Shown: positions 20-34,897 of the stretch, piece by piece | Layout of the letters: each line of letters starts with the position of its first letter | Numbering within the stretch: position 1 is the stretch's first letter | Virus record (IMG/VR): IMGVR_UViG_2579778778_000007 | DNA: 34,897 nucleotides | Reading direction: 5' to 3' (one strand) | Source: a virus | Lineage: Duplodnaviria > Heunggongvirae > Uroviricota > Caudoviricetes | The notes under the pieces: generated by a model | Seen by the model: only the letters and a program-made list of their open reading frames with translations | The model's database searches: none | Told to the model about the DNA's origin: nothing | Made by a program: the position numbers and the translations under genes

Positions 20-2386
20 TTAAATAAACATAAGAATAAACATCAGAAGTTCCTCGTATCTGATACCATACTGATAACCAGCAGGTTTAATAATAACCTG
101 CCTTCCTGTGTAATATTCCTCGTCGTACCACTCTCCTGTTTCATTGTTTTTAACACTCCTAATTAATACCTCTGGAGCATAAATATCATCCCATTCATCA
201 TAACACCAGAACGCATAGTTATTAGGTTCAAGACCGTATTTTCTGAGAATATTACCTACAGTTTGTGCACCAACACCGAAATGAATCCGAGCGCCATCAC
301 TCTTGATCTTTACTGCATCTTTAAATTTAAACCTCCAGATATTTTCCTTTATTTCAAGCGCAGCAAGACGCTCTGATTCTGTTGTTTTCTCGTCAGCCTC
401 AATACGCAATTTCAGCTCTTCATTCGACGTGTTGATACTGCCAGTACCAGCGTATACCTGTGACCATCGAAATGCTGATGTTCCGTTTGAGTTAACATTA
501 TCAACAGTTGGTTTTATAAGGCCAGAAAAATGAGTTTCAGGTGTATTAATATATGTATATGCACCTGCTGTACTGCGAGTCCTTAACTCAAAACTGTCTA
601 TATCAACACCAGTCCTACGAATTATAAGGAAGTTATTTCCTGCGGAACCAGTATCTGTTTGAGTGCTAACAGATAATCCGTTTCGTGTATCAATACGTAT
701 ATTCTTCCCGTTCTCCAGCGAAGCAGAATTATGTAGATGCAGCGAGTTGTCAGTGTAGAGATGGTGTTTACCTACATTACTAAATGTATAAGTATTGCTT
801 GTGTCATCACTGTTCCTATGGAATTGCTGAAGAGTGTAGGCAGAAGATGCTCCGTATCCATCACAATGGAAATTTCTGCACAGCTGCAAATCGAATAACA
901 ATACGGTGTCAGCATTAATGCTCACATTATTAAAGCATGTTGCAAAGTTGGCACCATACTGTGAATTGGAATCGCCAATCTGTGCGCACACATCAAGCAA
1001 ACCAAAAGTTACATTGGTAAAGTTATTTGCATCACCGGCGTCAAGAACAATCCCTTTCTTAGTCCCTGAATACCCTCTGGCAGTGCCGATCTCAATTCCC
1101 TGGAATGAACACACGCGAGCACGACTAAGCTTAAGACCAACCCATTCCAGACCATGATCGTAACCTTTTGCTGCGCGGTGAATAAACATACCATTCATGA
1201 TGAGCAGGAATCTGTTATCCAGCCGTACTGGTTCAAGTTGGGCATTAATACCAACATTTGTGCATATACATTCACCATAAGCATAACGATTCGTTTCAAA
1301 TATACGATCATCAGCGTCGTAAATGCCTCGTAATGCCTTGGCGGCATCAATATTAAGCAATGTAAAATATGTCTTCTGCTTAATTTCAAAAAAATTTGCA
1401 ACATTATGCGTTGTGATATCACTCACACGCATTGATAAAATCCCCTCTTCTGGAGCGGTGCGAATGAATCCATCAAGGAACTGTTCATTATAACTTTTGG
1501 CTATCTGATAACATCCAACAGCATCAATGCGTTCGATTGTGAATTGCCAACTATCACCACAGTTAAAAGACCATTCCCAACCGTATTTCTGTGCGAATTC
1601 ATCAGAATCAATATTTGCAGTCTCAGAACAGAAAGATAAAAATCTAAATGTTGGTTTTGGCCTTAGATGATTAAGCCCGACACCTCTTGGGGTATATATG
1701 GCATTAGCGCCATTCCCGCCTTTGCTTTTAATTGTAAGGTGACTTAAACCAAATTCAACATCATGCTTAGTTGGTGCAGCGAAAACAAATCCATCTTTTG
1801 GTGATGTGGTATTATCAAACACAATAACCGTTTTACCCTGTCCATCGCCACACATATTCACTGGTGGTATATTAACTGGTCCAATTAAATTATATGTTCC
1901 AGTTGGAATATATAACTTTCCACCATCTCCAAGAGCATTTGCTGCTGCAATAAATGCCACCGTATCATCGTTAACACCGTCACCTTTCGCCCCATAATGC
2001 TGTGGCGTAATTAACAGCATACGGTCAGAAAAAATCTCTGTCCTAAGTTGATCAGGATCGTATTTTAATACATTTGGAAAATAAAACTGCTGTGTACCAT
2101 ACGCATCATAAACAGCCATAGAATGGCCTTGCACAGTTACGAACTTGGCAATCTGTCCGTTATATACCGGATATCCAGCAGCATTAATGATGATTGGTTG
2201 CGGAACAGGAACGTGAGAGCCGTCTTCGTTCTCCACATAAACCTGAATCTGGTTTTCAGGATTTACCGGGTCAGTGTCAATTTTACCGATATAAATTTTG
2301 CCATTAGCTACGGCTTTAAAAGAACGCGCCATAGTGAAGAGTTGCGAAGGCATCGATACGATCACATTGGCTGTAATGTCTGTCAT
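20..2386 (-). CDS. Tailspike protein: P22 gp9-like N-terminal head-binding domain, pectate-lyase-like beta-helix receptor-binding domain, distinct C-terminal extension
   Basis: ORF track 788 aa; N-terminus [11 protein letters not shown]...[11 protein letters not shown]...[13 protein letters not shown] matches remembered P22 gp9 head-binding domain; [12 protein letters not shown] motif typical of beta-helix depolymerases. Confidence 0.85.
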
Positions 2387-2564: not shown

Positions 2565-3488
2565 TCAGTAGTTATGTACTGAAGGAGGCAATTCTTTATT
2601 CTTAAGTCTCATCCATGCGGAAAGATTCGTTGGTCCGTCTGGCTCATTGATATCAACATCTCGTGTGTGGTTGATTAAAACGTCTCTCGCCATTCCGATA
2701 ACATACGAGAACTCATGACCATAGTCGTAGCATCTGCCGGAATAGTTCGATTGAATTTGTTTTAGCGCCGGATACAGTTCGCGGAATAATGCCTGTGAGC
2801 GGTTGGCATAATCCCATAACCATACAAGGCTGTTTGCTTCTTTTGCAGAAAGCTCGTTGGTTTTCTTCTCTTGTTTGCCGATTAACTCGCCTTCAAGCGG
2901 AACGCGAGCTGCAAGTGACAGAGCTTCGGTAAACTGCTCATCGCTGATTTCTTTGTATGAACACCCAAAATGAGATTTCAGTGACGACCACATGGTAATC
3001 ATTGCCTTCGCCTGTTTTTCTTTTGGCAGAGACTGACCGCGACTCATGACGAGTTGTTTAATGGCTTCCTGCTGTTCAGTGGTGATTTTACCCGGCAACG
3101 CCTTTTTAGCTTTGCGTGGGTTAACTACATGGCCTTTAGTCCAGTACTCGTAGAGCACATCGTCACACTCTTCCTGATACTGGATTACATTGTCGCGGAT
3201 TTCAGGGCGGACTTTGTTAGGGCTGATGGTTTGCAACCAGCCATTCAGTTTACGTAAAGCAAGGCAAATCATGGTCTGCACACCGCCAACTGAAGGTATT
3301 GCGATTTCCACAATACCTTTAGCAAATCTTTGTTTTAACTTTGTAAACTGTGAAGCCCAATCCATACCCATTCCCTCAACGATAGGTTTCATTGGGGTGT
3401 ACGGCTCACCGTTGTGATTGACAACATAAAGCTCTGCGCCGTGGAATGGTACATTGATAGTAGATACTGCTGTTGCTATACTTTTCAT
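2565..3488 (-). CDS. ant: Antirepressor (Ant-like)
   Basis: ORF track 307 aa; position downstream of arc and divergent from mnt-like gene exactly as in P22 immI; N-terminal segment resembles antirepressor family as remembered. Confidence 0.55.
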
Positions 3489-5948: not shown

Positions 5949-8117
5949 TTACTCCTGTGCCATTCCGCTTAGCGATGCCACAATTCCAGCTCTTGCTAAA
6001 CGCTGGAACTCTTCGTTTCCTAGTGCCTCGCGTATTGCTTTTACGGCGGCCTTATTTGCCATAAATCTGCGTTCCGCCGCCGCTAATGCACCATCACTTG
6101 CCCCAACCTTAACTGCCTTTGTTGCCTCTTGAACAGCCTTTTCAATAGCGTAACGACCGCTTCTAGTTGCGGATAATTTCGCTATCGCTCCTTTTGCCAT
6201 TGCATCAATTGCCCCACCTGCAGCGCCACCCGCTATTGCTCCAATAACGCCTCCTCCAGAGAACCCTGCGATAGTGCCAGTAGTTCTAAAAGCGCCAGAC
6301 AATGCGCTCTCTAAAACTGGATGAAGGCCATTCTCAAGAGTGCTAATGGCTGGCATAGATCGCCCTGTCTGTTCAACATATCGAAGTGGCTTTGTTGCTG
6401 CTCGTGCAAGTTCTCCGTATGAACTTGTAATCCTGCCAAGTTCTGGAGAATATCGACTAATTGCCTTCACGTTTTGTGGGGTAAGAATAGTCGCGATATG
6501 CTTAATTCCAGCCTCTTCAGACTTACCTCCGCGTACCCCTTGCGACATTGCATCTTGTAATATTGATGCAATTGCTGGCGCGCGTTCCGACTCAGGTAGG
6601 GCGCTTATTATTTTATGGAACTGACCTGTTCCACTTTTTGCTGAACCCTGTAACGCCTTAGATCCATTAGTTACCAACTGATCAGTTGCAAGGTCTCTAC
6701 CAAACGCTGCTTCAGCCTGTTCTTGTGCTGTAAATCTTGCCTTTGACAGATCATTAGCTTTTTGCCAGTCATCAAGAAAACCGCCATTTTGAGCCATTAT
6801 GCGCATATCTTCCGTTGCTGCATCACGAAGCTCAGCCATGCGCCTTGCCGTATTTGCCTCACCAGACCTTATATACTTCTGCTCTGCGTCAGCAAGTTTA
6901 CTTCGCCATGCCTTCATGGCATCAAACGTGATTCCTTTTTTACCAGTTTTAGCATAAGCAGATGCGAATTGTTTCATCTCAGGAGTTAGCGGCATGCCAG
7001 CCAAAATATCACCCTGAATTGTAGCGTTCAGGTTTGACATTCTGGCCTTTGCGTCAGGCATCGTGGAGCGGACGCTATCCCATGCAGCCTTTTCTGAATT
7101 TTTCATTTTATCAATACTTGCCAAAACCCTTTGTTTTATGGCTGCACTTTTTTCTGATGCAGTTCCTGCTTCAGCCCCAAACTCATCCAATGCTGAGTTA
7201 AATTTCGACTCTATTTCACTGAATGCTTTGGTGTGTGCATCCTGTGTAATTCCGGGCTTTGACGCCAGAATCCCCTCCGCCTGAGCAAGACCACGACTAC
7301 CTGATCTCATGCCAGGAGTTAATGCGTTGATATCTATTCCAGCAGTATCTGCTGCTTTTGCTATTTCGTCTGACACATTAGCTGACTGTCTGGCAATAAT
7401 CTCTCTTCCTGTACCAGACTTTGCCATTTTCGAAACATCAGCAGCGGAATTTATTGCCCCGCCACCAAGAACTTGAGGTGATTTAGAGGTTAAGATCCTT
7501 CCAGCCCCAGAAAGTATCCCCTGAGCACCAATATTGATACCACCGTTAATGGCAGCATTTTGTGCAAAGTCGCCCTCCTGATTTGCAGCATCAGCAAGAG
7601 AACCTGCAATCATGTTTCCTGCGGAACCGATATCTTCAGCGAGCTTTGCTGGCGCTCCAGCAGCTTTTGCCGCTGTGCCAATTGGCAGGAGATACCCACC
7701 AATTGTTTCACCGGCTTGCGCGTAAGGGTCTGTCGGTCGATCGACAGGGCGATAAACATCATCCAAAACCTTTGGGCCACCAAGCCCCTGGCTGATTGCA
7801 TTAATCAGACTTGCGCCACCCTGCAATACGTCAAATGGTATGTTTACCAGACCACGACCAGCCTGTTCTGCAATTTGCCCTGCACTTTGACCACCAGTGA
7901 GCCAATCGCCAGCTTGTTGCATCAATGATGGTTCTTCTTTCTGCTGCTGAGGTGGAGGGTATGCTGCATAAAACTGATCTCTTGCTTCAGCCCATTTGTC
8001 ACCAGCCTTAGGGGCAACAACCTCATCAAAATATTGCGCTTGAGCCTGTGCTTTCTGTTCTTCAGTTAACGCCTGATACTGTGGAGAAGCGATAACATCT
8101 TTCCATGCTTTAGCCAT
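5949..8117 (-). CDS. Ejection (injection) protein, P22 gp16-like
   Basis: ORF track 722 aa; Ala/Gly-rich; synteny after gp20-like gene. Confidence 0.65.
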
Positions 8118-21362: not shown

Positions 21363-21733
21363 TCGTACCTCCTGTCGGTAAATCTGACACCCTGACCAAT
21401 AGCCCACGCTGTTGTGTACTCAATCAGACTTGCCATACGCTTCACACTCATCTGCGCGCTGCTTTCGCGGATGTTGACGTATTCGCCTTCAAGCCCGGGC
21501 AAAACATCAGCTTCCTGCTTTGTTGCCACTGCATGACCGCTGATCAACAAAACCTTCCATTGTTCTGGTTTTAACCATTTATCGCGCCACTGAACTTGCC
21601 TGGCGATATCTGCGACCATCGCGTGAAATTTTGCGTTCTGGTCAAGATTTCGCTTGTAGTCAGTAATGCGGATGGTGACTGGCTTGTCTTTATCGAGAGG
21701 AGTTGCGAGGATGCCCTGTATCTCGTGAGTCAC
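21359..21733 (-). CDS. ninB: NinB recombination protein
   Basis: ORF track 124 aa; similarity to remembered lambda NinB; synteny. Confidence 0.7.
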
Positions 21734-22916
21734 TTGGTAATGGGCGTTTATTGGTTCTGCTTTCCAGTGCGCGGTTAAGCTGCGTCAGAAGCACAACAAC
21801 GCAATCAAGCTCTTTGGCAAGGTTCTTCAGTCCTTTGGTGATCATGCCGTAAGCAAGGTCGTTGCGATCGGCCTTCTCAGCGGTCATTAGTGTCAGGTAA
21901 TCGACCAGAATCATGCCAACACATCCTTTTTCTCGCTTGATTCGACGGCTTTCGCTGACGATTTGAGCCAGAGATAATCCCGGCGTGTCGTCGATGTAAA
22001 GCAGGTCGATTTCACTCAAACGATTAGCTGTTTCGATCGCCCTGTTGAAGTCACCATCGTAATCACCCTGATAGCCGTCATCAGCGTCATTTGTCGCCGG
22101 AAGGTAAAAAATATTCGGGTTAACACCTGACTTCTGCCCTACCAGTTTTTCCAGTATCTGATCACCTGGCATTTCAAGGCTGAACATCAGAGCGGGCTTT
22201 TTCTCATGCACTGCGCAGTTGATTGCCATCTGGCTGTATAGCGTCGTTTTCCCCATCTTAGGGCGAGCGCCAATGACAAACAGAGAGCCTTTCACCAGAC
22301 CTTTCGGTGACAGCATCCTGTCCAGCGATGGGATCCCTGTGCTCATTCCTCGTTGTTCGCCTGACGGGTCAAATCGCTTCTCAAGGTCGCTAACCCAGTC
22401 TTCCATGACCTCACCAAATGAGCGAAGGCCGCGACGCGATCCGGTTTTTGCATGGTCTGTCAGTTGCGTGAAAATCGCCTGAATAGCTTCGTACTTCTGC
22501 GTCGCAGTCATTCCGTTGCGGGAATAGAGCAATTCCGTCGCTTCAGTCATGCGGTTGATGGCGTAGCGTTCCATTGCGGTTTCACGAACCTGCATTGCAT
22601 AGGCAACGATGTTTGCTGCGCTTGGCGTGTTCTTTGCGATCTCAGCGATATAAGCAAAACCGCCAACAGACACCGTTAACGATTTACGCTCCAGTTCATC
22701 GAAAAGCGTCAGGCCATCTACTGGCTTTTGCTCCCGGTGCATTCTGGTTATTTCTTCGAAAAGGATTTTGTGTGGTCGGCTGTAAAATGAATCGGGCTTC
22801 AGCATCGCCAGAACTTTCTGGACGCGCTCACTGCTGTCATCATCCAGAAGCAATCCACCAATCACCGCCTGCTCTGCCTCGATGCTATGGGGCGGCGCAT
22901 AAAAATTATCGGTCAT
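21690..22916 (-). CDS. Replicative DNA helicase (DnaB family)
   Basis: ORF track 21690-22931 (GTG); ATG at 22914-22916 with SD; N-terminal PHSIEAEQAVIGG and Walker A GARPKMGKT. Confidence 0.85.
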   Translation of the reverse strand: MTDNFYAPPHSIEAEQAVIGGLLLDDDSSERVQKVLAMLKPDSFYSRPHKILFEEITRMHREQKPVDGLTLFDELERKSLTVSVGGFAYIAEIAKNTPSAANIVAYAMQVRETAMERYAINRMTEATELLYSRNGMTATQKYEAIQAIFTQLTDHAKTGSRRGLRSFGEVMEDWVSDLEKRFDPSGEQRGMSTGIPSLDRMLSPKGLVKGSLFVIGARPKMGKTTLYSQMAINCAVHEKKPALMFSLEMPGDQILEKLVGQKSGVNPNIFYLPATNDADDGYQGDYDGDFNRAIETANRLSEIDLLYIDDTPGLSLAQIVSESRRIKREKGCVGMILVDYLTLMTAEKADRNDLAYGMITKGLKNLAKELDCVVVLLTQLNRALESRTNKRPLPSDSRDTGHPRNSSR

Positions 22917-23796
22917 CGTGTTCACCCTCACGAACTTTCAGGTAGGTATTGTCGTTAAGCAGGAAATCAAATCCCTTTTTGTGCCAGACGGTTCCGCGTT
23001 GATGGTTTGGACGCTCTTCGAACATCCATCGGCAATTTTCGCCTACGTAGCTCAAATAATTTCTCCAGTCCTGCATCGTGAACCCATGCCCGTCAAGCTG
23101 GCGGGTTATCACTCCGGCTTTGCGCCAGAACGTTCGGATCTGGTTTTTACGCTTGTCATTCAGTGCGCGGATTCTTGGCGCTTCAGGAAGGATTTCGTGG
23201 TAAGCATCGACAACATCCTGACAGCTGACGGGAGGTTTTTTCTTGTCAGACTTTTTGTCTGCTGTGGCACTCTCTAATACGTCAGTATTAGAGATATTAT
23301 TTATATTATTGTTTATGGACAACCGTTGGACAACCGTTGGACAATCTCCGCTGAGAGCCGCGCCATTACTTGTGTTTGCGTTGGACAACCGTTGGACAAC
23401 CGTTGGACAATTTTTTGCCTGAAAATCGTCATATTTAACGATTGTAAACAGGCTAAATTTCTTCCCCATCGAGCAAATATTAAGCATCCCTTTCGACTCA
23501 AAAGTCCGTAATAAGCTCCGAACTTTGTTGTCGGGGATGAATGTTTCTCTGACCAGCGACGGGCGTCCAGTTATCATCTGACCGCGATCAACAGTTATCG
23601 GCCCGATATCCGTATTGACGACAGTAGATTCGTGATTAGCCTTGAGGATTAAGTGAAGCCAAAGATGTACTGCCTGAGAGTCCTTATAGAGCCTGCTGTC
23701 CATAAACTGGCGGTGTATAGAGACATACCCCATACTGGATGCCTCCTGATGTTGTACAGGGTTATGCCTGTAATCAGCTAACTTAACGACGCCCAT
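22906..23796 (-). CDS. O: Replication initiator O-like protein (origin-binding), ori embedded in coding sequence
   Basis: ORF track 296 aa; iteron cluster inside the gene translates as repeated PTVVQRLS; followed by helicase gene. Confidence 0.75.
   Translation of the reverse strand: MGVVKLADYRHNPVQHQEASSMGYVSIHRQFMDSRLYKDSQAVHLWLHLILKANHESTVVNTDIGPITVDRGQMITGRPSLVRETFIPDNKVRSLLRTFESKGMLNICSMGKKFSLFTIVKYDDFQAKNCPTVVQRLSNANTSNGAALSGDCPTVVQRLSINNNINNISNTDVLESATADKKSDKKKPPVSCQDVVDAYHEILPEAPRIRALNDKRKNQIRTFWRKAGVITRQLDGHGFTMQDWRNYLSYVGENCRWMFEERPNHQRGTVWHKKGFDFLLNDNTYLKVREGEHDDR
23318..23412. repeat. Origin iterons: two clusters of three 11-bp direct repeats (GGACAACCGTT) followed by an AT-rich tract to about 23450
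   Basis: Read directly: 23318-23350 and 23383-23412. Confidence 0.8.
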
Positions 23797-23976: not shown

Positions 23977-24273
23977 TCAGAATTGCATATCAATTTGCTT
24001 AAAATCCTCGGTGGCGGCCGGGGATTTTTTCTTTGTGATTTCATCAAGCGCATACTTAAAAGCCCTGCTAATCGGACTGATGTCTGATGCCATTCCGAAA
24101 GCACACAAGACCGAAGCAATAAATCTCCAGTCCGTTCTGCTTATCTTCGATTCATGACAGCCAATCATCTTTGCCAGACCGCGCTGGGTAAGCGTTGACA
24201 GGTTGATGAGTAAATCAGTTTCTGCGCGATCAATTTCTCGCTGTGTTGGCTTGCTGTAACTTGCTTGTGTCAT
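23977..24273 (-). CDS. cII: CII-like transcriptional activator (not lambda-type over most of its length)
   Basis: ORF track 98 aa; HTH-like TQRGLAKMIGCHESKISR; C-terminus KKKSPAATEDFKQIDMQF resembles remembered lambda CII tail; position after cro/nutR. Confidence 0.6.
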   Translation of the reverse strand: MTQASYSKPTQREIDRAETDLLINLSTLTQRGLAKMIGCHESKISRTDWRFIASVLCAFGMASDISPISRAFKYALDEITKKKSPAATEDFKQIDMQF

Positions 24274-24357
24274 TTGTTAATTTTCCAATAGTGAATAGTT
24301 AGTTGAAAGGTATGCGTGGAAACGCATATGGCCTTAGTTGGTCAGATATCTTGGGGC

Positions 24358-24393
24358 TCGCTTTGTCAGCGACGTAGGACGAATGTCCATTGT
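24358..24393 (-). promoter_or_regulatory. nutR-like site: boxA-like CGCTCTTTT (24385-24393) and boxB hairpin UCGCUGACAAAGCGA (24358-24372)
   Basis: boxB has same loop GACAA as nutL boxB at 27070-27084; boxA matches CGCTCTT consensus. Confidence 0.55.
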
Positions 24394-24410
24394 GAAAAGA
24401 GCGGTGTTAC

Positions 24411-24620
<210 letters not shown>

Positions 24621-24637
24621 TTAGTACATGCAACCAT

Positions 24638-24701
24638 TATCACCGCTAGAGGTAAAATAGTCAACACGCGCGGTGTTAGATATTTATCCCTTGCGGTGAT
24701 A
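24638..24701. promoter_or_regulatory. Lambda-type right operator OR1 (24638-24654), OR2 (24662-24678), OR3 (24685-24701) with pR/pRM
   Basis: 17-bp operators match remembered lambda OR; OR1 and OR2 each differ at one position from my remembered canonical sequence. Confidence 0.8.
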
Positions 24702-24708
24702 GATTTAA

Positions 24709-25425
<717 letters not shown>

Positions 25426-25502
25426 GGCCAGCAACGGATCACAACAAACACATGGGGCGGCGGATTAAGGGTGATGGAGAATCGAAATAAGTTGAGGTCA
25501 AC

Positions 25503-25658
25503 ATGAACACGTTCAGCATAATCGCGATACCTTTTTTTGCCCTTTCAGTGGTTCTGTTGACTCTTGGCGCTACCAGGAAGAACCAAGCCAGCTTCATCGT
25601 TGGCGGCGTGTTTATGGCGTCATGCGTGGTTAATGCCATTATCGGCATGTCTCTTTGA
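25503..25658 (+). CDS. Hypothetical small hydrophobic protein (51 aa, two predicted membrane helices), below ORF-track cutoff
   Basis: Hand-translated MNTFSIIAIPFFALSVVLLTLGATRKNQASFIVGGVFMASCVVNAIIGMSL; SD GAGG 5 nt upstream; 78 nt downstream of cI stop. Confidence 0.4.
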   Translation: MNTFSIIAIPFFALSVVLLTLGATRKNQASFIVGGVFMASCVVNAIIGMSL

Positions 25659-25850
25659 GCGCTATGAGATCAGGCATCCTCGTTACTTTGTCATGTGTGA
25701 CAGCCTGGTATGCACTCTGCGAGCTTTGATGTGGTTTACCACTTTAATAGTCACCGTATCACTAAACTGATTAGCTTTACTCATACTCTTGTGGATTCGC
25801 TATTTCTGATGTCAATGCAAAAAAATACTAAGGAAACAAAAAGGATACTT

Positions 25851-26117
25851 ATGTCAGATAACACTATTAAAATCATACCTCAGCACATGACCGCCACATC
25901 AGTTCTTATTACGCCTGATCGTGCTGAAACAATCATTACTTTTTACCGCCATGAATTTGAGCATCACATGCAGTCTGATGAGCAAGGAAATAATAGCTTC
26001 CAAGTAAAAGTTGAGTTGACCCCTAACATGTCAGTCTCAATGAGCCCGGATCAAGCTGTTGCATTAGTAAAATCATTACAGGTAGCTCTCAGGGATAATG
26101 GGCTATGGAAAGACTGA
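25851..26117 (+). CDS. Hypothetical protein (88 aa from ATG 25851)
   Basis: ORF track 25710-26117; ATG at 25851 preceded by AAAAAGGA; no recognised homology. Confidence 0.5.
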   Translation: MSDNTIKIIPQHMTATSVLITPDRAETIITFYRHEFEHHMQSDEQGNNSFQVKVELTPNMSVSMSPDQAVALVKSLQVALRDNGLWKD

Positions 26118-26755
26118 AGCCAGTTTCTTCAGTTCAACCTACCTCAGGAACAACATCATCAGTTCTTCCAAGTATTATAGTTAGTGCAACCCTAGCAGCG
26201 ACAACCGTTTCTCCTTATGGGGATCCATCTCAGTACCAAAGTATTGGTATTGATGCTAAGGTATCAAATAGAGTTTCATACGCCATGGACGAAACGGGTT
26301 TGCGCCCAAGTAAGGAAGATGTAGCGATGAAGAGTGATACCCTGGAGGTAAGCGTGAGCGGAATGTCCAGAGAAGAACTTGACGCAAAGCTTTCACAAAA
26401 CAAATCAGAGGTAGAGTCTATTGCTGCGGAAATGCGTCGCGAATCAGCTGACTTTAAAACCTATTATACTCAGCAATTTTCTTCTATTGAGAGAGGTATT
26501 GCTGAAATTAAAGGTGAAATCGGCGGTTTGAAAACGGGACTTACAACGACTCAGTGGGCGATGGCCGTTGGCTTGACTTTAGTTACTGTGATTCTGTCTG
26601 GCGTGATGTTAGCCTCAAGTTGGATTATCTCCGGCAATGACAAGTCACCATCAGTAACCAGCCCGGCTCCAATTATAATACAGGTACCGACACAGCAACC
26701 ATTAACGAGCGCTCCAACTAACCAATCGTCATCACAACAAGCTCCTAAGCAATAA
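26105..26755 (+). CDS. Hypothetical membrane-anchored protein: Ser/Thr-rich N-terminus, coiled coil, one transmembrane helix, Pro/Gln/Ser-rich tail (alternative start ATG 26327)
   Basis: ORF track 216 aa; 13-nt overlap with upstream gene; hydrophobic WAMAVGLTLVTVILSGVMLASSWII. Confidence 0.6.
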   Translation: MERLKPVSSVQPTSGTTSSVLPSIIVSATLAATTVSPYGDPSQYQSIGIDAKVSNRVSYAMDETGLRPSKEDVAMKSDTLEVSVSGMSREELDAKLSQNKSEVESIAAEMRRESADFKTYYTQQFSSIERGIAEIKGEIGGLKTGLTTTQWAMAVGLTLVTVILSGVMLASSWIISGNDKSPSVTSPAPIIIQVPTQQPLTSAPTNQSSSQQAPKQ

Positions 26756-26760
26756 ATAAA

Positions 26761-26787
26761 CCCGGCCACCGCGCCGGGTTTTCTTTG
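26761..26787 (+). terminator. Rho-independent terminator ending the cI-side operon just before OL
   Basis: CCCGGC-cac cgc-GCCGGG followed by TTTTCTTT, 6 nt after stop codon. Confidence 0.6.
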
Positions 26788-26938
26788 CCTCACGTTCGCC
26801 CCAAAACACATAACCAATTGTATTTATTTGAAAATTAATAGATACAACTCACTAAACATCGCAATTCAGATCTCTCGATCACCTCCCAAGCCACACACCC
26901 CTGCAAAAAAAATAAATCTATATAAAAAACATACAGAT

Positions 26939-27001
26939 AACCATCTGCGGTGATAAATTATCTCTGGCGGTGTTGACATAAATACCACTGGCGGTGATAC
27001 T
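26939..27001. promoter_or_regulatory. Lambda-type left operator OL3 (26939-26955), OL2 (26959-26975), OL1 (26983-26999) and pL (-35 TTGACA 26973-26978, -10 GATACT 26996-27001)
   Basis: Matches remembered lambda OL/pL; similarity to lambda ends about 15 nt after the -10. Confidence 0.85.
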
Positions 27002-27069
27002 AAACACATCAGCAGGACGCACTACTCACCAGGGCGGTGAATATACAACGATTCGAATATGAATCTACG

Positions 27070-27084
27070 GCGCTGACAAAGCGC
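27070..27084 (+). promoter_or_regulatory. nutL boxB hairpin GCGCUGACAAAGCGC (P22-type)
   Basis: Matches remembered P22 nutL boxB; between pL and N. Confidence 0.6.
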
Positions 27085-27249
27085 AATAACCAAAGTGAAC
27101 TTTGGGGTGTGGTGAAGGGTTCATGGACGGGAATATGTCGCACGTAAAGCGGCGAGGCCTGCGGGACTATTGCCGAATTGAAGTAGGCCGAAACAGGTCG
27201 AAATGGGTCTTCCACCTACCACACCACCAAAGTTCATCAGGAGGTCTAT

Positions 27250-27633
27250 ATGACACGCAGAACTCAGTTCAAAGGCAATTCACGTTCTCGTCGTCGTGAG
27301 CGTTTAAAGGCAAAGGCATTAGCTAACGGCGTACTGGCCCGCGAAGAAGCAATAAGTTCAGAAGTATTACACCGCCCTACTCTAAGCAGAGCGCAGATTC
27401 AGGCTAAAGGTACTCACGAAACGCCTGAGCGCATAGAAGACGCTAAGCCAATTAAGTTCATGGCACAGGACGTGATCTGGCAACAGAAAGAATACAGACG
27501 CAATCTGGAGAGAGCGGCCATTGTGTACGCGAATGAGTTTGGGCATAGGCAACCAGAAACTGGTGTATGTCTTCCAAATGTAGCTCTTTACGCGGCAGGC
27601 TACAGGAAATCAAAACAACTGACAGCGAGGTAA
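27250..27633 (+). CDS. N: N antiterminator, P22 gp24 / phage 21-type (not lambda-type)
   Basis: ORF track 127 aa; Arg-rich N-terminus; C-terminus LPNVALYAAGYRKSKQLTAR resembles remembered P22 gp24 tail; SD AGGAGG 5 nt upstream. Confidence 0.75.
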   Translation: MTRRTQFKGNSRSRRRERLKAKALANGVLAREEAISSEVLHRPTLSRAQIQAKGTHETPERIEDAKPIKFMAQDVIWQQKEYRRNLERAAIVYANEFGHRQPETGVCLPNVALYAAGYRKSKQLTAR

Positions 27634-27636
27634 GTG

Positions 27637-27861
27637 ATGAATCAGACATACATTCCATCATGCTTGAGAAATCTGCCAAAGCAGAAAGCAAAGCCCCGCA
27701 AGCAAGCCATAAAGGACGCTAAGGCAGAGGTTATTGATCAAGCAATACAATTGCTCAGGGAGGAGTTAAGAAGTGGCAAGCTCGAAGGAATGATGATGCC
27801 CTATCAGCGCGGATATCTATCGGCGATTAGTAAGTTGGAAGTATTGAAGAGTGAATTATGA
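27637..27861 (+). CDS. Hypothetical early-left protein
   Basis: ORF track 27634-27861; ATG 27637 with SD GAGG. Confidence 0.5.
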   Translation: MNQTYIPSCLRNLPKQKAKPRKQAIKDAKAEVIDQAIQLLREELRSGKLEGMMMPYQRGYLSAISKLEVLKSEL

Positions 27862-28175
27862 ACTATCTGGAATTTCCGGATGGTTCATTGTTTTGGCAGC
27901 AAACCACTTATTTGAGGTGGGATATGGAGTTTCATGAAAGTGCGATTTGTGATTTTCGCGCTAACGCAAATTCAGTAAAACCACAGCCAATTGCAGTTCT
28001 TTTTAAAACAATGGGTGCGTGGGCTGTTTTATGCTTCGCCGCTGACGACACTGACGCAAGAATGGCAATAGGCCAAGAGATGGAGATGGACCCGACAAAC
28101 GATGAATTCATAATTTATGGCGCTCCATCTAATTACTTACTTGATACCTGCAACATTTACAACAAGGCTGCCTGA
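27858..28175 (+). CDS. Hypothetical early-left protein
   Basis: ORF track 105 aa; ATGA overlap with upstream gene. Confidence 0.5.
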   Translation: MNYLEFPDGSLFWQQTTYLRWDMEFHESAICDFRANANSVKPQPIAVLFKTMGAWAVLCFAADDTDARMAIGQEMEMDPTNDEFIIYGAPSNYLLDTCNIYNKAA

Positions 28176-28543
28176 TGGTGGCCTTTATTTTTGGCATAAA
28201 CAATATTGGGGTAAAAATGAAAGTTTTAATGGTTTATGAAAATGTTCCAGAGTCGACTGAAATCTATATTTTTGATGCCAATGAAGATGAAGTTAACGAT
28301 TTAAAATTGTCTCACGGCAATTACACAAATGCTAATTGTGATGAAAGTATCGAAAAAGCACTATCACGTGTTCTTGTCAGAATCAGCGATCCAGAACATT
28401 GTGATAATGATTGGCTTTCTTATTGTGGAGCGGTAAAAACTGATGCAGGAAAATGGAGTAAAAGTAAAGTTGATAACTCAACTCCAATCATTATGAAAGA
28501 TAGTGATATTGAAATGGTAATAATAACCGGAATGATTGTGTAG
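28175..28543 (+). CDS. Hypothetical acidic protein (alternative start ATG 28217)
   Basis: ORF track 122 aa; AT-rich. Confidence 0.5.
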   Translation: MVAFIFGINNIGVKMKVLMVYENVPESTEIYIFDANEDEVNDLKLSHGNYTNANCDESIEKALSRVLVRISDPEHCDNDWLSYCGAVKTDAGKWSKSKVDNSTPIIMKDSDIEMVIITGMIV

Positions 28544-28649
28544 GATGCGAATAAGCGCTGTGTATTCATTCCAACGAGTGAATACACGGAGCAATGTCGC
28601 TCGTAACTAAACAGGAGACGACTTGTTCTGATTATTGGAAATCTTCTTT

Positions 28650-28676
28650 GCCCTCCAGTGTGAGGGCCTTTTTATA
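28650..28676 (+). terminator. Rho-independent terminator (GCCCTC-cagtgtg-GAGGGC-CTTTTTAT) upstream of cIII
   Basis: Read directly; positioned like a tL terminator that N-modified transcription reads through. Confidence 0.5.
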
Positions 28677-28739
28677 TGCATACCAATAATGCTTCACCAG
28701 AGGCATTTTCGTTATGCAATCAAACAGAAGGAGCATCCT

Positions 28740-28910
28740 ATGCAACAGTTCGCTATTGCAGGGGCGGCATCGGTTCGCCCTTTCAACCCGATTTTATCGG
28801 TACAGCATTCACGAAAAAACATTTTAACCGGAGCAGACTTTAAACAACCAAGAATGAAAAGCTTGCTCGAAAAGCTTTGGGATATTTTGAAACAACAAGG
28901 CCGTCCATGA
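28740..28910 (+). CDS. cIII: CIII-like protein
   Basis: ORF track 28635-28910; ATG 28740 with SD AAGGAG 6 nt upstream; MQQFAIAG...SLLEKLWDILKQQGRP resembles remembered lambda CIII. Confidence 0.55.
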   Translation: MQQFAIAGAASVRPFNPILSVQHSRKNILTGADFKQPRMKSLLEKLWDILKQQGRP

Positions 28911-29077
28911 GTTTTACAGATAACTGGTCAGACGAAGAATTCATTCGTCAGATGAAAGAATTAATCGGTAACGAAGGAGATATTCATGTCACTTGCAACC
29001 ACAGTGAAGGAGAGCAAGTTACAGAGACGCATGTACACGCAGCAGGCGTTAATGTATCGCCAGAAGGGAGATCGTGA
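28907..29077 (+). CDS. Hypothetical protein at the kil position (56 aa)
   Basis: ORF track 28877-29077; ATG overlaps cIII stop (ATGA); overlaps the next candidate in another frame. Confidence 0.3.
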   Translation: MSFTDNWSDEEFIRQMKELIGNEGDIHVTCNHSEGEQVTETHVHAAGVNVSPEGRS

Positions 29078-29156
29078 AGGTGTTCGCGTATTTTTAAATG
29101 CGGCAAAGACTGAAGTATTAAATCAGCGTTATTTCCTTGGGCCGTGTCCATTCTGA
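28986..29156 (+). CDS. Hypothetical protein at the arf position (56 aa), immediately upstream of erf
   Basis: Hand-translated MSLATTVKESKLQRRMYTQQALMYRQKGDREGVRVFLNAAKTEVLNQRYFLGPCPF; strong SD GGAG 6 nt upstream. Confidence 0.4.
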   Translation: MSLATTVKESKLQRRMYTQQALMYRQKGDREGVRVFLNAAKTEVLNQRYFLGPCPF

Positions 29157-29166
29157 GATCAAACAT

Positions 29167-29772
29167 ATGAGCAAAGAATTTTATGCAAGGCTGGCAGCCA
29201 TTCAGGAGAATCTGAACGCGCCAAAGAATCAGTACAACTCATTCGGTAAATATAAATACAGAAGCTGCGAAGACATTCTTGAAGGAGTTAAGCCGTTACT
29301 GAATGGTCTGTTTTTATCAATCAGCGATGAAGTTGTGTTGATTGGTGATCGGTATTACGTGAAAGCCACGGCAACTATTACCGATGGCGAAAACAGTCAT
29401 ACGGCAACCGCTCTTGCACGAGAGGAAGAAAGCAAGAAAGGAATGGATTCTGCACAAGTTACGGGAGCTACAAGCTCTTATGCACGCAAGTATTGCCTCA
29501 ATGGTTTATTCGGCATTGATGATGCGAAAGATGCAGATACCGACGAGCATAAACATCAGCAGAACGCAGCAGCAAAGCAATCAAAACCATCACCTACGCC
29601 TGAACAGGTTCTAAAAGCATTCACTGACGCAGCAATGCAGAAAAACACCGTGGAAGAGCTTAAACAGGCGTTCGCCAAAGCGTGGAAGATGCTCGAAGGC
29701 ACACCGGAGCAGCACAAAGCGCAGGACGTTTACAACATCAAACGAGACGAATTAGAAGGAGCGGCTGCTTAA
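29167..29772 (+). CDS. erf: Erf single-strand annealing recombinase (P22 Erf-like)
   Basis: ORF track 29137-29772; from MSKEFYARLAAIQENLNAPKNQYNSFGKYKYRSCEDILEGVKP closely matches remembered P22 Erf. Confidence 0.9.
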   Translation: MSKEFYARLAAIQENLNAPKNQYNSFGKYKYRSCEDILEGVKPLLNGLFLSISDEVVLIGDRYYVKATATITDGENSHTATALAREEESKKGMDSAQVTGATSSYARKYCLNGLFGIDDAKDADTDEHKHQQNAAAKQSKPSPTPEQVLKAFTDAAMQKNTVEELKQAFAKAWKMLEGTPEQHKAQDVYNIKRDELEGAAA

Positions 29773-30155
29773 TGGCACATTCGATTACTGTAAGACTAAA
29801 CAAGCCCGCAAGAGAGTTTCAGGCCGGGGAAAATATCGGATTCAACATCCGTGCTGGCGTTCAGTATTACGATCGCCAGACAAAAAAGAAAGAATGGACA
29901 AACTACAGCGCCGTTGTAGTTGCCAAGCCGGGAGCGCAAGCGGATTACTACCGTAGTGTTCTTGTTGAAGGTGGCATTGTGGAAATTACCGGAGAAAACA
30001 TCAGGGTTGATGTTTATCAGGGGCAAAATGGTCAATCAATCACTCTTGAATTACTGAATGCAAAGATTGGATTTGCAGCTTCAGGAAATGGCCCGCAGCA
30101 GCAAAGTAGTAACCAGCAGAACACTCCTGTATACGACGATTCCATCCCATTCTGA
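29772..30155 (+). CDS. ssb: Single-stranded DNA-binding protein-like (short SSB with C-terminal DDSIPF tail)
   Basis: ORF track 29682-30155; ATG 29772 overlaps erf stop; C-terminal acidic tail ...DDSIPF characteristic of SSB. Confidence 0.65.
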   Translation: MAHSITVRLNKPAREFQAGENIGFNIRAGVQYYDRQTKKKEWTNYSAVVVAKPGAQADYYRSVLVEGGIVEITGENIRVDVYQGQNGQSITLELLNAKIGFAASGNGPQQQSSNQQNTPVYDDSIPF

Positions 30156-30178
30156 TTCAGAAAAATAAGGATTTAATC

Positions 30179-30475
30179 ATGCCAGCGCCTCTGTATGGTG
30201 CGGATGACCCGCGCCGTTGTTCCGGCAATTCCATATCGGAGGTGCTGGATAAATTCAGAAAAAACTACGACCGGATAATGTCGCTACCGCAGGAAACGAA
30301 AGAGGAAAAGGAATTTCGCCACTGTATATGGCTTGCAGAGAAAGAAGAACGCGAGCGAATTTACCAGACATCAATCCGACCATTCCGCAAAGCCACATAT
30401 ACCCACTTCCCTGAATATATCGACCCGCGCCTGCGTAATTACCGCTCACGCTATGGCGCTATCAGTAATGACTGA
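30179..30475 (+). CDS. Hypothetical protein (positional analogue of P22 anti-RecBCD abc genes; homology not verified)
   Basis: ORF track 98 aa. Confidence 0.45.
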
Positions 30476-30485
30476 GGAATTCACC

Positions 30486-30656
30486 ATGAGAGGACTTGCA
30501 TACAATCCCGGCATTCTTCCGGCAGAAATGATTATTCGCCAACGCGTAAAGCCAATGCCATCGAGAGAGGAATTGCTTAAGAGAAATTCTTTTCCGTCAG
30601 TGAATCAAAACAAATATCTGAATGCGATGTGGCGGAGTGGGAGGACTAACAAATGA
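30486..30656 (+). CDS. Hypothetical small protein
   Basis: ORF track 30333-30656; ATG 30486 with SD GAGG. Confidence 0.35.
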
Positions 30657-31339
30657 CCACTATAACCAAAGAGCGACTACTGACAATCAAGCAGTGGCGC
30701 GAAACATACGGACCTGGTAGCAACGTAGTGCTTCCAGCAGAAGAAGCGGAAGAGCTGGCACGGATTGCACTGGCATCACTGGAACGCGAACAGATTCGCC
30801 ACGAGCATGCCAAATGGTCTGACTCCACATTTGGCTGCGTTGGCCCCATTGGTCCACTGAAACACCTCTCAAAAGAGGCTCTGGAAGCCGCAGCAGAACC
30901 AGACGATCTTAGCGAGTGGGCTGATATGCAGTTTCTGTTGTGGGATGCACAGCGCCGTGCTGGCATCAGCGATGCTGAAATTACCGCTGCTATGGAAGAT
31001 AAATTGAAGATCAACATGGAGCGCCAGTGGCCTGAGCCAAAAGATGGTGAGCCTCGCTTGCACATTAAAGAACCCGGCAACTATCCGGTAACTCCGGATG
31101 GTTGGATAAGCTGTAGTGAGCGAATGCCAGAAATGGGAGAGCGACAATGCTATGTGTTAGCAGCTGACTTTAAAAACAACTACCCACCAAACATCCCCAA
31201 CACTCAGGTCGGCGTATATGGCGACTGGTTTAATGATGGCAATCCCACTTGGGATGACGGTGATGGCGAAGACCTGTATCTCAAAGAGGTAACCCACTGG
31301 ATGCCTCTACCAGAACCGCCTCGATTAAAGGAGCTATAA
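30653..31339 (+). CDS. Phage protein with N-terminal DUF550-like and C-terminal DUF551-like regions
   Basis: ORF track 228 aa; C-terminal ...[11 protein letters not shown] as remembered for DUF551 proteins. Confidence 0.5.
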
Positions 31340-31453
31340 TAGTGAACTATTATATCTATTTGTATTAAAAGAGTTTTTATAAAATAAATCTTCCAAAGCA
31401 TGTAAAAACACTGTTAATCTTAACGTGTGTGAAACGTGAAGAGAGGTGTTGAA

Positions 31454-31735
31454 ATGAGCATTCATGATTTGTGTGAAGATCAAGAGCAATGGGCTATGCA
31501 GACCCTTATGGGATCAGGAGTTCTTGCAAGGTGCAGAATCCATAACGATGTAATTTTAGACAGCGGAAATGATGCTTATTCTGCTTATAAATTAGGAACT
31601 TACCTATATCAAAAAGATAATAGCTGCAACTTATTCAATACTCTTACTGAAGCCCGCGACGCAATAAAGGATGCATATGAATCGTATTGTGGGATTGATG
31701 ATTGCCCACAATGCTCAAAATACATTGACGATTAA
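31454..31735 (+). CDS. Hypothetical protein (AT-rich moron)
   Basis: ORF track 31436-31735; ATG 31454 with SD GAGAGGTG 5 nt upstream. Confidence 0.5.
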   Translation: MSIHDLCEDQEQWAMQTLMGSGVLARCRIHNDVILDSGNDAYSAYKLGTYLYQKDNSCNLFNTLTEARDAIKDAYESYCGIDDCPQCSKYIDD

Positions 31736-31752
31736 TAATATGAACAAGTAAC

Positions 31753-31783
31753 AATCCTCGCACTCGCGGGGATTTCTTTTATC
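31753..31783 (+). terminator. Rho-independent terminator
   Basis: 9-bp stem AATCCTCGC/GCGGGGATT (one G-U) followed by TCTTTTAT. Confidence 0.55.
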
Positions 31784-31822
31784 TGAACTTGCTACGGCGA
31801 ATTTTGTTTTATGGAGATGATT

Positions 31823-32122
31823 ATGGTCTGTTCAACATTAAACCCTCTAACGTTACAGAAATACCAGCAAGACCCTGAAGATTTATGCTCACTGTGTGGC
31901 GGAAATCATGGTAAAGCCGCCATGATCGAATGTAAGGACAAAATCCACATATGCCTTAATTGCGTTGATGTCCTCGTTGATATCAAAAATGAGAGAGAAG
32001 ATAAAAAGCGTAGCGAGGCTATTCGCGCATTAGATTCATGGATGCGAGATGGGTATAGTGCTGCGCAAATTTATGACTTCGCAATATCAAAAGGCGAAAT
32101 ACCAGGAGTGCGCATCGAATAA
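31823..32122 (+). CDS. Hypothetical protein with CxxC...CxxC zinc-ribbon-like motif
   Basis: ORF track 31811-32122; ATG 31823 has SD GGAG 6 nt upstream; CSLCGG...CLNC. Confidence 0.5.
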   Translation: MVCSTLNPLTLQKYQQDPEDLCSLCGGNHGKAAMIECKDKIHICLNCVDVLVDIKNEREDKKRSEAIRALDSWMRDGYSAAQIYDFAISKGEIPGVRIE

Positions 32123-32162
32123 GACGTAACCAATATTCGAATTGAAGAACTGAAAGAACACC

Positions 32163-32187
32163 AAGCCGCCTGATGGCGGTTTTTTCT
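32163..32187 (+). terminator. Rho-independent terminator upstream of xis
   Basis: GCCGCC-TGAT-GGCGGT followed by TTTTTCTT. Confidence 0.6.
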
Positions 32188-32212
32188 TGCGTGTAATTGC
32201 GGAGACTTTGCG

Positions 32213-32431
32213 ATGTACTTGACACTTCAGGAGTGGAACGCTCGCCAGCGACGCCCAAGAAGCCTTGAAACAGTTCGTCGATGGGTGCGCGAATGCAGGA
32301 TATTCCCTCCTCCGGTTAAGGATGGAAGAGAGTATCTGTTCCACGAATCAGCGGTAAAGGTTGACTTAAATCGACCAGTAACAGGTAGCCTTTTGAAGAG
32401 GATCAGAAATGGGAAGAAGGCGAAGTCATGA
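32213..32431 (+). CDS. xis: Excisionase, lambda Xis
   Basis: ORF track 72 aa; matches remembered lambda Xis; overlaps int start. Confidence 0.9.
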   Translation: MYLTLQEWNARQRRPRSLETVRRWVRECRIFPPPVKDGREYLFHESAVKVDLNRPVTGSLLKRIRNGKKAKS

Positions 32432-33479
32432 GCGCCGGGATTTACCCCCTAACCTTTATATAAGAAACAATGGATATTACTGCTACAGGGACCCAAGGAC
32501 GGGTAAAGAGTTTGGATTAGGCCGAGACAGGAGGATAGCAATCACTGAAGCTATACAGGCCAACATTGAGTTATTTTCAGGACACAAACACAAGCCTCTG
32601 ACAGCGAGAATCAACAGTGATAATTCTGTTACGTTACATTCATGGCTTGATCGCTACGAAAAAATCCTCGCCAGCAGAGGAATCAAGCAGAAGACACTCA
32701 TAAATTACATGAGCAAAATTAAAGCAATAAGGAGGGGTCTGCCTGATGCTCCACTTGAAGACATCACCACAAAAGAAATTGCGGCAATGCTCAATGGATA
32801 CATAGACGAGGGCAAGGCTGCGTCAGCCAAGTTAATCAGATCAACACTGAGCGATGCATTCCGAGAGGCAATAGCTGAAGGCCATATAACAACAAACCCT
32901 GTCGCTGCCACTCGCGCAGCAAAATCAGAGGTAAGGAGATCAAGACTTACGGCTGACGAATACCTGAAAATTTATCAAGCAGCAGAATCATCACCATGTT
33001 GGTTAAGACTTGCAATGGAACTGGCTGTTGTTACCGGACAGCGAGTTGGTGATTTATGCGAAATGAAGTGGTCTGATATCGTAGATGGATATCTTTACGT
33101 CGAGCAAAGCAAAACAGGCGTAAAAATTGCCATCCCTACAACATTGCATGTTGATGCTCTCGGAATATCAATGAAGGAAACACTTGATAAATGCAAAGAG
33201 ATTCTTGGCGGAGAAACCATAATTGCATCTACTCGTCGTGAACCGCTTTCATCCGGCACAGTATCAAGGTATTTTATGCGCGCACGAAAAGCATCAGGTC
33301 TTTCCTTCGAAGGGGATCCGCCTACCTTTCACGAGTTGCGCAGTTTGTCTGCAAGACTCTATGAGAAGCAGATAAGCGATAAGTTTGCTCAACATCTTCT
33401 CGGGCATAAGTCGGACACCATGGCATCACAGTATCGTGATGACAGAGGCAGGGAGTGGGACAAAATTGAAATCAAATAA
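32409..33479 (+). CDS. int: Integrase, lambda Int (tyrosine recombinase)
   Basis: ORF track 356 aa; essentially identical to remembered lambda Int. Confidence 0.95.
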   Translation: MGRRRSHERRDLPPNLYIRNNGYYCYRDPRTGKEFGLGRDRRIAITEAIQANIELFSGHKHKPLTARINSDNSVTLHSWLDRYEKILASRGIKQKTLINYMSKIKAIRRGLPDAPLEDITTKEIAAMLNGYIDEGKAASAKLIRSTLSDAFREAIAEGHITTNPVAATRAAKSEVRRSRLTADEYLKIYQAAESSPCWLRLAMELAVVTGQRVGDLCEMKWSDIVDGYLYVEQSKTGVKIAIPTTLHVDALGISMKETLDKCKEILGGETIIASTRREPLSSGTVSRYFMRARKASGLSFEGDPPTFHELRSLSARLYEKQISDKFAQHLLGHKSDTMASQYRDDRGREWDKIEIK

Positions 33480-33567
33480 TGATTTTATTTTGACTGATAG
33501 TGACCTGTTCGTTGCAACAAATTGATAAGCAATGCTTTTTTATAATGCCTACTTAGTATAAAAAAGC
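33480..33567. other. Prophage attL: lambda P' arm (33480-33552) and 15-bp core (33553-33567, GCTTTTTTATACTAA on minus strand) joined to bacterial arm
   Basis: Reverse complement reads ...GAAGCCTGCTTTTTTATACTAAGTAGGCATTATAAAAAAGCATTGCTTATCAATTTG..., matching remembered lambda att sequence with one difference. Confidence 0.85.
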
Positions 33568-33613
33568 AGGCTTCAACGGATTCATTTTTCTATTTCATAG
33601 CCCGGAGCAACCT

Positions 33614-34897
33614 GTGAACACATTTTCAGTTTCCCGTCTGGCGCTGGCATTGGCTTTTGGCGTGACGCTGACCGCCTGTAGCTCAACCCCGCCCGATCAA
33701 CGTCCTTCTGATCAAACCGCGCCTGGTACCTCTTCTCGCCCGATTCTGTCGGCAAAAGAAGCGCAGAATTTCGATGCTCAACACTATTTTGCATCCCTGA
33801 CACCAGGTGCTGCAGCGTGGAATCCTTCCCCGATTACCCTGCCTGCGCAACCTGACTTTGTTGTCGGCCCGGCGGGCACTCAAGGTGTAACGCATACCAC
33901 GATTCAGGCGGCGGTAGATGCGGCAATTATCAAGCGTACCAACAAGCGCCAGTATATTGCCGTGATGCCTGGTGAGTATCAGGGAACGGTATATGTCCCT
34001 GCCGCTCCGGGTGGAATTACTCTGTACGGTACAGGTGAAAAACCGATTGATGTGAAGATTGGGCTTTCCCTTGATGGTGGCATGAGCCCTGCCGACTGGC
34101 GTCACGACGTCAACCCGCGCGGCAAATATATGCCAGGTAAACCAGCGTGGTATATGTACGATAGCTGCCAGAGCAAACGCAGCGACAGTATCGGTGTTCT
34201 CTGCTCTGCGGTCTTCTGGTCACAAAACAATGGCCTGCAACTGCAAAATCTGACCATCGAAAACACGCTGGGCGATAGCGTAGATGCAGGTAACCATCCG
34301 GCGGTGGCACTGCGTACTGATGGTGACCAGGTACAGATTAACAACGTTAACATTCTCGGTCGTCAGAACACCTTCTTTGTCACCAACAGCGGTGTGCAGA
34401 ACCGTCTGGAAACCAACCGTCAGCCGCGTACGCTGGTGACCAACAGCTACATTGAAGGGGATGTGGATATCGTTTCTGGTCGCGGCGCAGTGGTGTTCGA
34501 TAACACCGAATTCCGCGTGGTGAACTCACGTACTCAGCAAGAAGCGTATGTGTTTGCACCGGCTACGCTGTCCAACATTTACTACGGTTTCCTCGCCGTA
34601 AACAGCCGTTTCAATGCTTTCGGTGATGGTGTGGCGCAACTGGGCCGCTCGCTGGATGTTGATGCCAATACCAACGGTCAGGTGGTGATCCGTGATAGCG
34701 CCATCAACGAAGGTTTTAACACGGCTAAACCGTGGGCCGATGCGGTGATCTCTAATCGTCCGTTTGCGGGTAATACCGGCAGCGTAGATGATAACGACGA
34801 AATACAGCGCAATCTGAATGACACTAACTACAACCGCATGTGGGAATACAATAACCGCGGCGTGGGTAGTAAAGTGGTTGCAGAGGCGAAGAAGTAA
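33614..34897 (+). CDS. ybhC: Host outer-membrane lipoprotein YbhC (pectinesterase-family protein)
   Basis: ORF track 427 aa; lipoprotein signal with lipobox LTAC; the host gene that flanks attB-lambda. Confidence 0.85.
   Translation: MNTFSVSRLALALAFGVTLTACSSTPPDQRPSDQTAPGTSSRPILSAKEAQNFDAQHYFASLTPGAAAWNPSPITLPAQPDFVVGPAGTQGVTHTTIQAAVDAAIIKRTNKRQYIAVMPGEYQGTVYVPAAPGGITLYGTGEKPIDVKIGLSLDGGMSPADWRHDVNPRGKYMPGKPAWYMYDSCQSKRSDSIGVLCSAVFWSQNNGLQLQNLTIENTLGDSVDAGNHPAVALRTDGDQVQINNVNILGRQNTFFVTNSGVQNRLETNRQPRTLVTNSYIEGDVDIVSGRGAVVFDNTEFRVVNSRTQQEAYVFAPATLSNIYYGFLAVNSRFNAFGDGVAQLGRSLDVDANTNGQVVIRDSAINEGFNTAKPWADAVISNRPFAGNTGSVDDNDEIQRNLNDTNYNRMWEYNNRGVGSKVVAEAKK

Follow-up and report, generated by a model that had tools for sequence, protein, structure and literature searches.

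What does one base of difference mean in an attachment site that otherwise reads as that of phage lambda? The question arises near the end of a 34,897-nt stretch of viral DNA (IMG/VR record IMGVR_UViG_2579778778_000007), which we refer to throughout as the window. Positions 33480-33613 of the window are intergenic, bounded on one side by the stop codon of int (33479) and on the other by the GTG start of ybhC (33614). Read on the minus strand, the junction inside this interval is GCCT-GCTTTTTTATACTAA-GTAGGCATTA, or over a longer reach ...gaagcct GCTTTTTTATACTAA GTAGGCATTATAAAAAAGCATTGC..., where reference lambda has GTTGGCATTA.

A lambda-type attL with one changed base

The following elements could be placed at the junction and on its bacterial side.

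33553-33567, minus strand: 15-bp common core GCTTTTTTATACTAA, the sole exact match within the window and the same in lambda, K-12 attB and JEP4
33556-33562, minus strand: 7-bp overlap (strand-exchange) region TTTATAC, placed by motif
33561-33569, minus strand: B core-type Int half-site CTGCTTTTT on the bacterial side, with a flank the same as the K-12 attB left arm
33549-33557, minus strand: C' core-type Int half-site (top strand ACTAAGTAG, bottom strand CTACTTAGT), with one mismatch to lambda CAACTTAGT
33550, minus strand: variant base, A on the attP top strand (T on the window plus strand) where lambda has T; lambda position 27741, +10 from the core centre
33515-33527, minus strand: core consensus TATCAATTTGTTG of the IHF H' site, no difference from lambda
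33497-33506, minus strand: P'1 arm-type Int site AGGTCACTAT, no difference from lambda
33487-33496, minus strand: P'2 arm-type Int site CAGTCAAAAT, no difference from lambda
33476-33485, minus strand: P'3 arm-type Int site AAATCATTAT, overlapping the int stop codon, no difference from lambda
33557-33568 and 33533-33544: arms of a 12-bp perfect inverted repeat around a 12-nt loop (33545-33556); DNA fold -11.3 kcal/mol, z = -4.4
33568-33613, plus strand: 46 bp of bacterial attB left-arm DNA, from the core to ybhC, the same as K-12 MG1655
33614-34897, plus strand: ybhC, intact, 427 aa, 427/427 (100%) identical to K-12 YbhC

The 15-bp core is the sequence common to attP and attB, and TTTATAC at 33556-33562 is what we take, from established knowledge of lambda att sites, to be the lambda overlap region. 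Alignment of the window to the attP of NC_001416 showed agreement throughout the core and the 73-base P' arm up to int, save one base. Alongside the core and overlap, the region holds a bacterial B half-site and left arm, H' with P'1-P'3, and adjacent int and xis genes, as a lambda-type attL would; C' matches CAACTTAGT at 8/9 bases, with T rather than A at position 2. From this arrangement we read 33476-33569 as the attL (B-O-P') of a prophage carrying a lambda-type int-xis-attP module at canonical attB-lambda. The core occurs once in the window, which begins 19 bp beyond the tailspike gene, and attR lies outside it.

An earlier note on this DNA, made from the letters alone, had described attL as identical to lambda except for one base next to the core and had given the lambda sequence as ACTAAGTTGGCATTA. 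Against NC_001416 attP that sequence proved correct: 33550 is the sole mismatch, and reference lambda lacks the window's base. The wording 'next to the core' is apt in that the base lies just outside the 15-bp core, but the base is more than a neighbour of the core, being position 2 of the C' Int-binding half-site. We number it by the 9-bp core-type consensus CAACTTNNT, taking both consensus and numbering from established lambda att knowledge. As the sole difference from lambda across the core and P' arm, it changes C' from CAACTTAGT to CTACTTAGT. It lies beyond the 7-bp overlap, to the phage (P') side, and stands well apart from the H' consensus core. Lambda attP has the inverted repeat too. 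The variant falls in its loop and leaves the arms untouched.

A half-site with the same base at position 2 already exists in nature. In attB-lambda, the B half-site CTGCTTTTT shares with the variant C' a T at position 2; at other positions the two half-sites differ. B is the bacterial half-site and the weakest. It shows that Int works on a half-site with T at position 2.

The bacterial side bears out the earlier note's view that ybhC is intact and that integration was at the normal attB-lambda. Because YbhC and the 46-bp attB left arm are intact and the same as in K-12 MG1655, we place the insertion at the canonical site between ybhB and ybhC. A scan of the region between int and ybhC found no terminator-like site. 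A terminator or promoter as the explanation of the region was therefore rejected: the one promoter-like match is weak, falls within int coding sequence and has no bearing on the variant. Since int and ybhC are co-directional, 134 bp apart and without a terminator-like site between them, read-through of prophage int transcripts into ybhC is possible in lysogens.

A P22-like mosaic with a lambda-type integration module

The prophage beyond this junction is of another kind. Its informative features are these.

20-2386, minus strand: tailspike with P22 head-binding domain, the first ORF of the window
2565-3488: P22-type antirepressor, with P22 antirepressor domains
21690-22931: DnaB-type helicase
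24712-25425: S24/HTH repressor
30653-31339, plus strand: ORF of the early-left accessory region fusing a dATP/dGTP pyrophosphohydrolase domain (PF04447) to DUF551
32213-32431, plus strand: xis, 72 aa, one substitution relative to lambda Xis (G59S)
32409-33479, plus strand: int, 356 aa, 353/356 (99.2%) identical to lambda Int (H164P, A245T, I248V)

Positions 2049-23969 match the P22-like phage IME10 at ~95% identity, and the early-left region (24001-33567) matches HK97 at 98% identity over 73% of its length. Identity as phage lambda (Lambdavirus) was therefore rejected on three counts: IME10-like morphogenesis genes, P22 tailspike and antirepressor domains, and the HK97-like early-left region. 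On gene content we classify the prophage as a P22-like (Lederbergvirus-type) mosaic that is lambda-type only in its int-xis-att module, its virion and replication genes resembling those of P22 or HK97. With lambda attL/attP (NC_001416 27714-27854) it shares the core, overlap, H', P'1-P'3, adjacent int, xis and the ybhB/ybhC insertion point, whereas the C' base pair at +10 (CAACTTAGT to CTACTTAGT) and the P22-like surroundings differ. A second IMG/VR contig, UViG_2579778654_000005 (34,878 bp), is 100% identical to the window over the window's last 1987 bases and probably represents the same prophage.

Distribution of the A allele

A lambda-type core and P' arm is carried by 1936 of 5426 complete E. 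coli genomes (~36%), mostly beside ybhC. Among these module-bearing genomes, 1801/1936 contain the exact lambda 88-mer and 3 the exact 88-mer of the window. We also searched the 5426 genomes with a 40-mer specific to the allele, all of whose 28-base seeds cover the variant; it matched the same three genomes and nothing else, placing the A allele in 3/1936, or ~0.15%, of such lysogens. Across complete E. coli genomes, conservation of the att-int module far exceeds that of the prophages bearing it.

The three carriers, FORC_082 (chicken meat, Korea), 'numer 3' (pigeon, China) and 22KM0354 (dog, Switzerland), are unrelated, and each has a P22-like prophage between ybhB and ybhC. Their prophages share with the window attL, the A allele, the insertion site and P22-like morphogenesis genes, but are unlike it in their immunity, replication, tailspike and accessory genes. 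The window aligns to them only at 32122-34897, at 98-99.8% identity; this span takes in xis, int, attL, ybhC and the end of the ORF upstream. In all three (L003, L004 and L005) attR lies next to ybhB and its overlap sequence is unchanged.

The attR of 22KM0354 (L005, NZ_CP151071) has a feature of its own. Near locus position 6623 it reads cattca-ACTTTTTTATACTAA-cttgag, so that the first base of the core is A and not G. Its C half-site is CAACTTTTT versus CAGCTTTTT in lambda, which brings it nearer to the consensus CAACTTNNT and leaves the overlap unaltered. We take this as a second natural core-type-site variant within one phage.

Among phage records, a single 100% match was found, JEP4 (MT740315, Lederbergvirus), which carries the A allele in attP. 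JEP4 was isolated from chicken faeces, plaque-purified and lytically propagated (PMC8425383). It shares with the window A at +10 and, over a 1350-nt span (core, P' arm, int), all but 1 base; it differs in having the attP form, with a phage P arm across the core, and in being otherwise a different P22-like mosaic, which is not among the best matches to window positions 1-24000. The 39-kb JEP4 record is classified as Lederbergvirus, with a P22-type tailspike and a lambda-type integrase; JEP4 is a temperate phage that formed part of a biocontrol cocktail. From electron microscopy it was called Myoviridae (PMC8425383).

In IMG/VR, six contigs carry the A allele, and the +10 base among the matches listed is T in at least 117 and A in at least 3, with no C or G. 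One metagenome contig (L147) has the A allele in attP form, with a tailspike head-binding domain across the core. Among GTDB species representatives, all 18 matches (L126-L143) carry T, most of them as attP-form lambda DNA in unrelated taxa, and they are thus uninformative about the allele. The attP-form sequences number 15/18; the taxa include Chromatiales, Shewanella, Pseudomonas, Paenibacillus, Bradyrhizobium and Oceanobacillus, among others, and the contigs are often ~48.4-48.5 kb. These sequences have the look of lambda control or vector DNA that has contaminated public assemblies.

These occurrences bear directly on whether the base is an error of sequencing or assembly in the window. 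A single base amid homopolymer-rich flanks is a place where such an error might fall. The change is, however, a substitution and not a homopolymer-length error, and the same base recurs in independent assemblies from different laboratories, hosts, countries and int haplotypes, which makes an error extremely improbable. Because the allele is found in 3 complete genomes, 6 IMG/VR contigs, JEP4 and 1 metagenome contig, it is no sequencing artefact. The A allele is real, heritable and rare, and it is present in free-phage (attP) configurations.

The same carriers speak to a history of decay, in which the mutation would have arisen in the attL of a trapped prophage and would impair excision. The FORC_082 prophage would suit such a history: it is visibly degraded, its replication and antirepressor genes being truncated and its annotation lacking repressor and lysis genes. 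Yet the A allele is also present in the attP form, in the plaque-forming JEP4 and in the metagenomic phage contig, and has therefore passed through excision or lytic growth. In the window, moreover, int and xis are both intact. We regard decay as very unlikely; together, the attP-form carriers and the independent occurrences essentially exclude both decay and sequencing error.

Linkage to int and to neighbouring att sequence

We set 9 A-allele sequences against 102 with the T allele over the 1350 nt that span core, P' arm and int. Within these 1350 nt no site was fixed in A-carriers yet absent from T-carriers, and a compensatory change in Int or Xis was rejected, as nothing in the comparison was both A-specific and fixed. 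The A-carriers fall on at least 5 int haplotypes that lie 12-22 nt apart, and two of these are identical to common T haplotypes over their first 500 nt. A single recent clone was likewise rejected, because A haplotypes are as distant from one another as from T haplotypes. With at least five haplotypes, two of them matching common T haplotypes, the A allele would be an old polymorphism that homologous recombination has spread, or else the product of recurrent mutation.

The integrase of the window shows no sign of having adjusted to the allele. We take R212, K235, H308, R311, H333 and Y342 to be the catalytic residues of lambda Int, and all six are unchanged. Positions N99 and H329, which separate lambda from HK022 specificity (PMC10863862), are also as in lambda Int. 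Both sets are unchanged because the window Int differs from lambda only at residues 164, 245 and 248. At these residues P164 and V248 are the majority alleles (92/102 T-allele sequences) and T245 occurs in ~50% of T-carriers, so the differences of the window Int from reference lambda are ordinary wild alleles and not compensations. In H164 and I248, reference lambda itself has minority alleles. The 10/102 sequences that share them are probably laboratory lambda itself, since they are 100% identical to lambda over 1350 nt.

Beyond the core, the two arms differ in how much they vary. The core-proximal P arm (H2 region) of JEP4, HK97 and P22-like prophages shows many differences from lambda, for example taatggtttttaatgtttcacgttca versus tatatcattttacgtttctcgttca, and the P' arm is invariant where the P arm varies (L002, L003, L004 and L030 versus L001). 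Judged from these alignments, the two arms of one att site appear to evolve very differently.

Tolerance or function

Our preferred reading, to which we give a probability of roughly 0.85, is that T(+10)A is a rare natural polymorphism, tolerated and probably near-neutral, at a low-information position of a weak, arm-assisted site. We infer tolerance from the persistence of the allele. Its rarity (~0.15%) fits neutrality with a recent origin and fits a mild fitness cost as well.

C' is usually considered the strongest of the core sites, and it may be less forgiving than B or B'. The published evidence on position 2 comes from B and B' only. In a collection of more than 300 functional secondary lambda sites, conservation is high at the T-run and at the equivalents of B half-site positions 1 and 4, and position 2 is not conserved (PMC5605937). 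In the Int tetramer structure, R109 is reported to touch the backbone phosphate of the A opposite T20 of attB, at the symmetric position in B'; human attH has G at that B' position, yet it too recombines (PMC2831311). Int has high affinity for arm-type sites and low affinity for core-type sites, and in attL it bridges C' to P'1 and B to P'2 over an IHF-bent H' (PMC4880445).

These properties suggest how a tolerated A allele would operate. Int would bind C' weakly through its core-binding and catalytic domains, and would be brought there by the intramolecular bridge from the high-affinity P'1 site over the IHF-bent H', all of these elements being intact. Position 2 of the half-site would contribute little specificity. 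An A allele would then be expected to serve in both integration and excision and to travel with the phage. Excision would put the +10 base back into attP and leave attB wild-type, because +10 lies outside the overlap and on the P' side, so that the phage would inherit the allele. The A allele in attP-form phage genomes fits such a return to attP.

The alternative is that the base does something. As a functional allele, it would tune Int occupancy at C' and alter the efficiency of integration or excision, or the attL intasome, and it would have been selected in some P22-like phages. Its presence on five or more int haplotypes, of which two equal common T haplotypes over the adjacent 500 nt, would fit recurrent origin or spread by recombination, and every carrier with visible morphogenesis genes is P22-like. 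It can also be read directly from the sequence that, with this change, the outer triplets of the two attL half-sites, B and C', become symmetric (CCT...AGG). Against function stand a frequency of only 3/1936, the existence of P22-like prophages with the T allele (L070, L088 and L102), the lack of any co-varying residue in Int or Xis, and the low information content of position 2. On balance we consider a functional allele unlikely. Those T-bearing P22-like loci also led us to reject the A allele as a requirement of P22-like phages. A sharper version holds that T(+10)A is non-neutral in that weakened or re-phased Int binding at an intasome-nucleating C' shifts the balance between integration and excision, and that this explains its spread or recurrence on several int haplotypes in P22-like coliphages; we hold this version to be decidedly unlikely.

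Implications

As a tolerated polymorphism, the allele matters little in itself. The site is a textbook lambda-type attL at its canonical location, the att/Int/Xis/IHF system is equally textbook, and the A allele was already in public records (JEP4, FORC_082 and others); our literature search found no paper commenting on it. What the locus adds is documentation of a rare C' allele travelling with viable phages. As a natural experiment, it suggests that A-to-T at position 2 is tolerated even in C'. Tolerance at this position bears on the engineering of lambda Int att sites and on the prediction of att sites in prophage annotation. Lastly, because the module is common to P22-like and HK97-like mosaics, a 'lambda attL' is not diagnostic of lambda and does not imply a lambda prophage.
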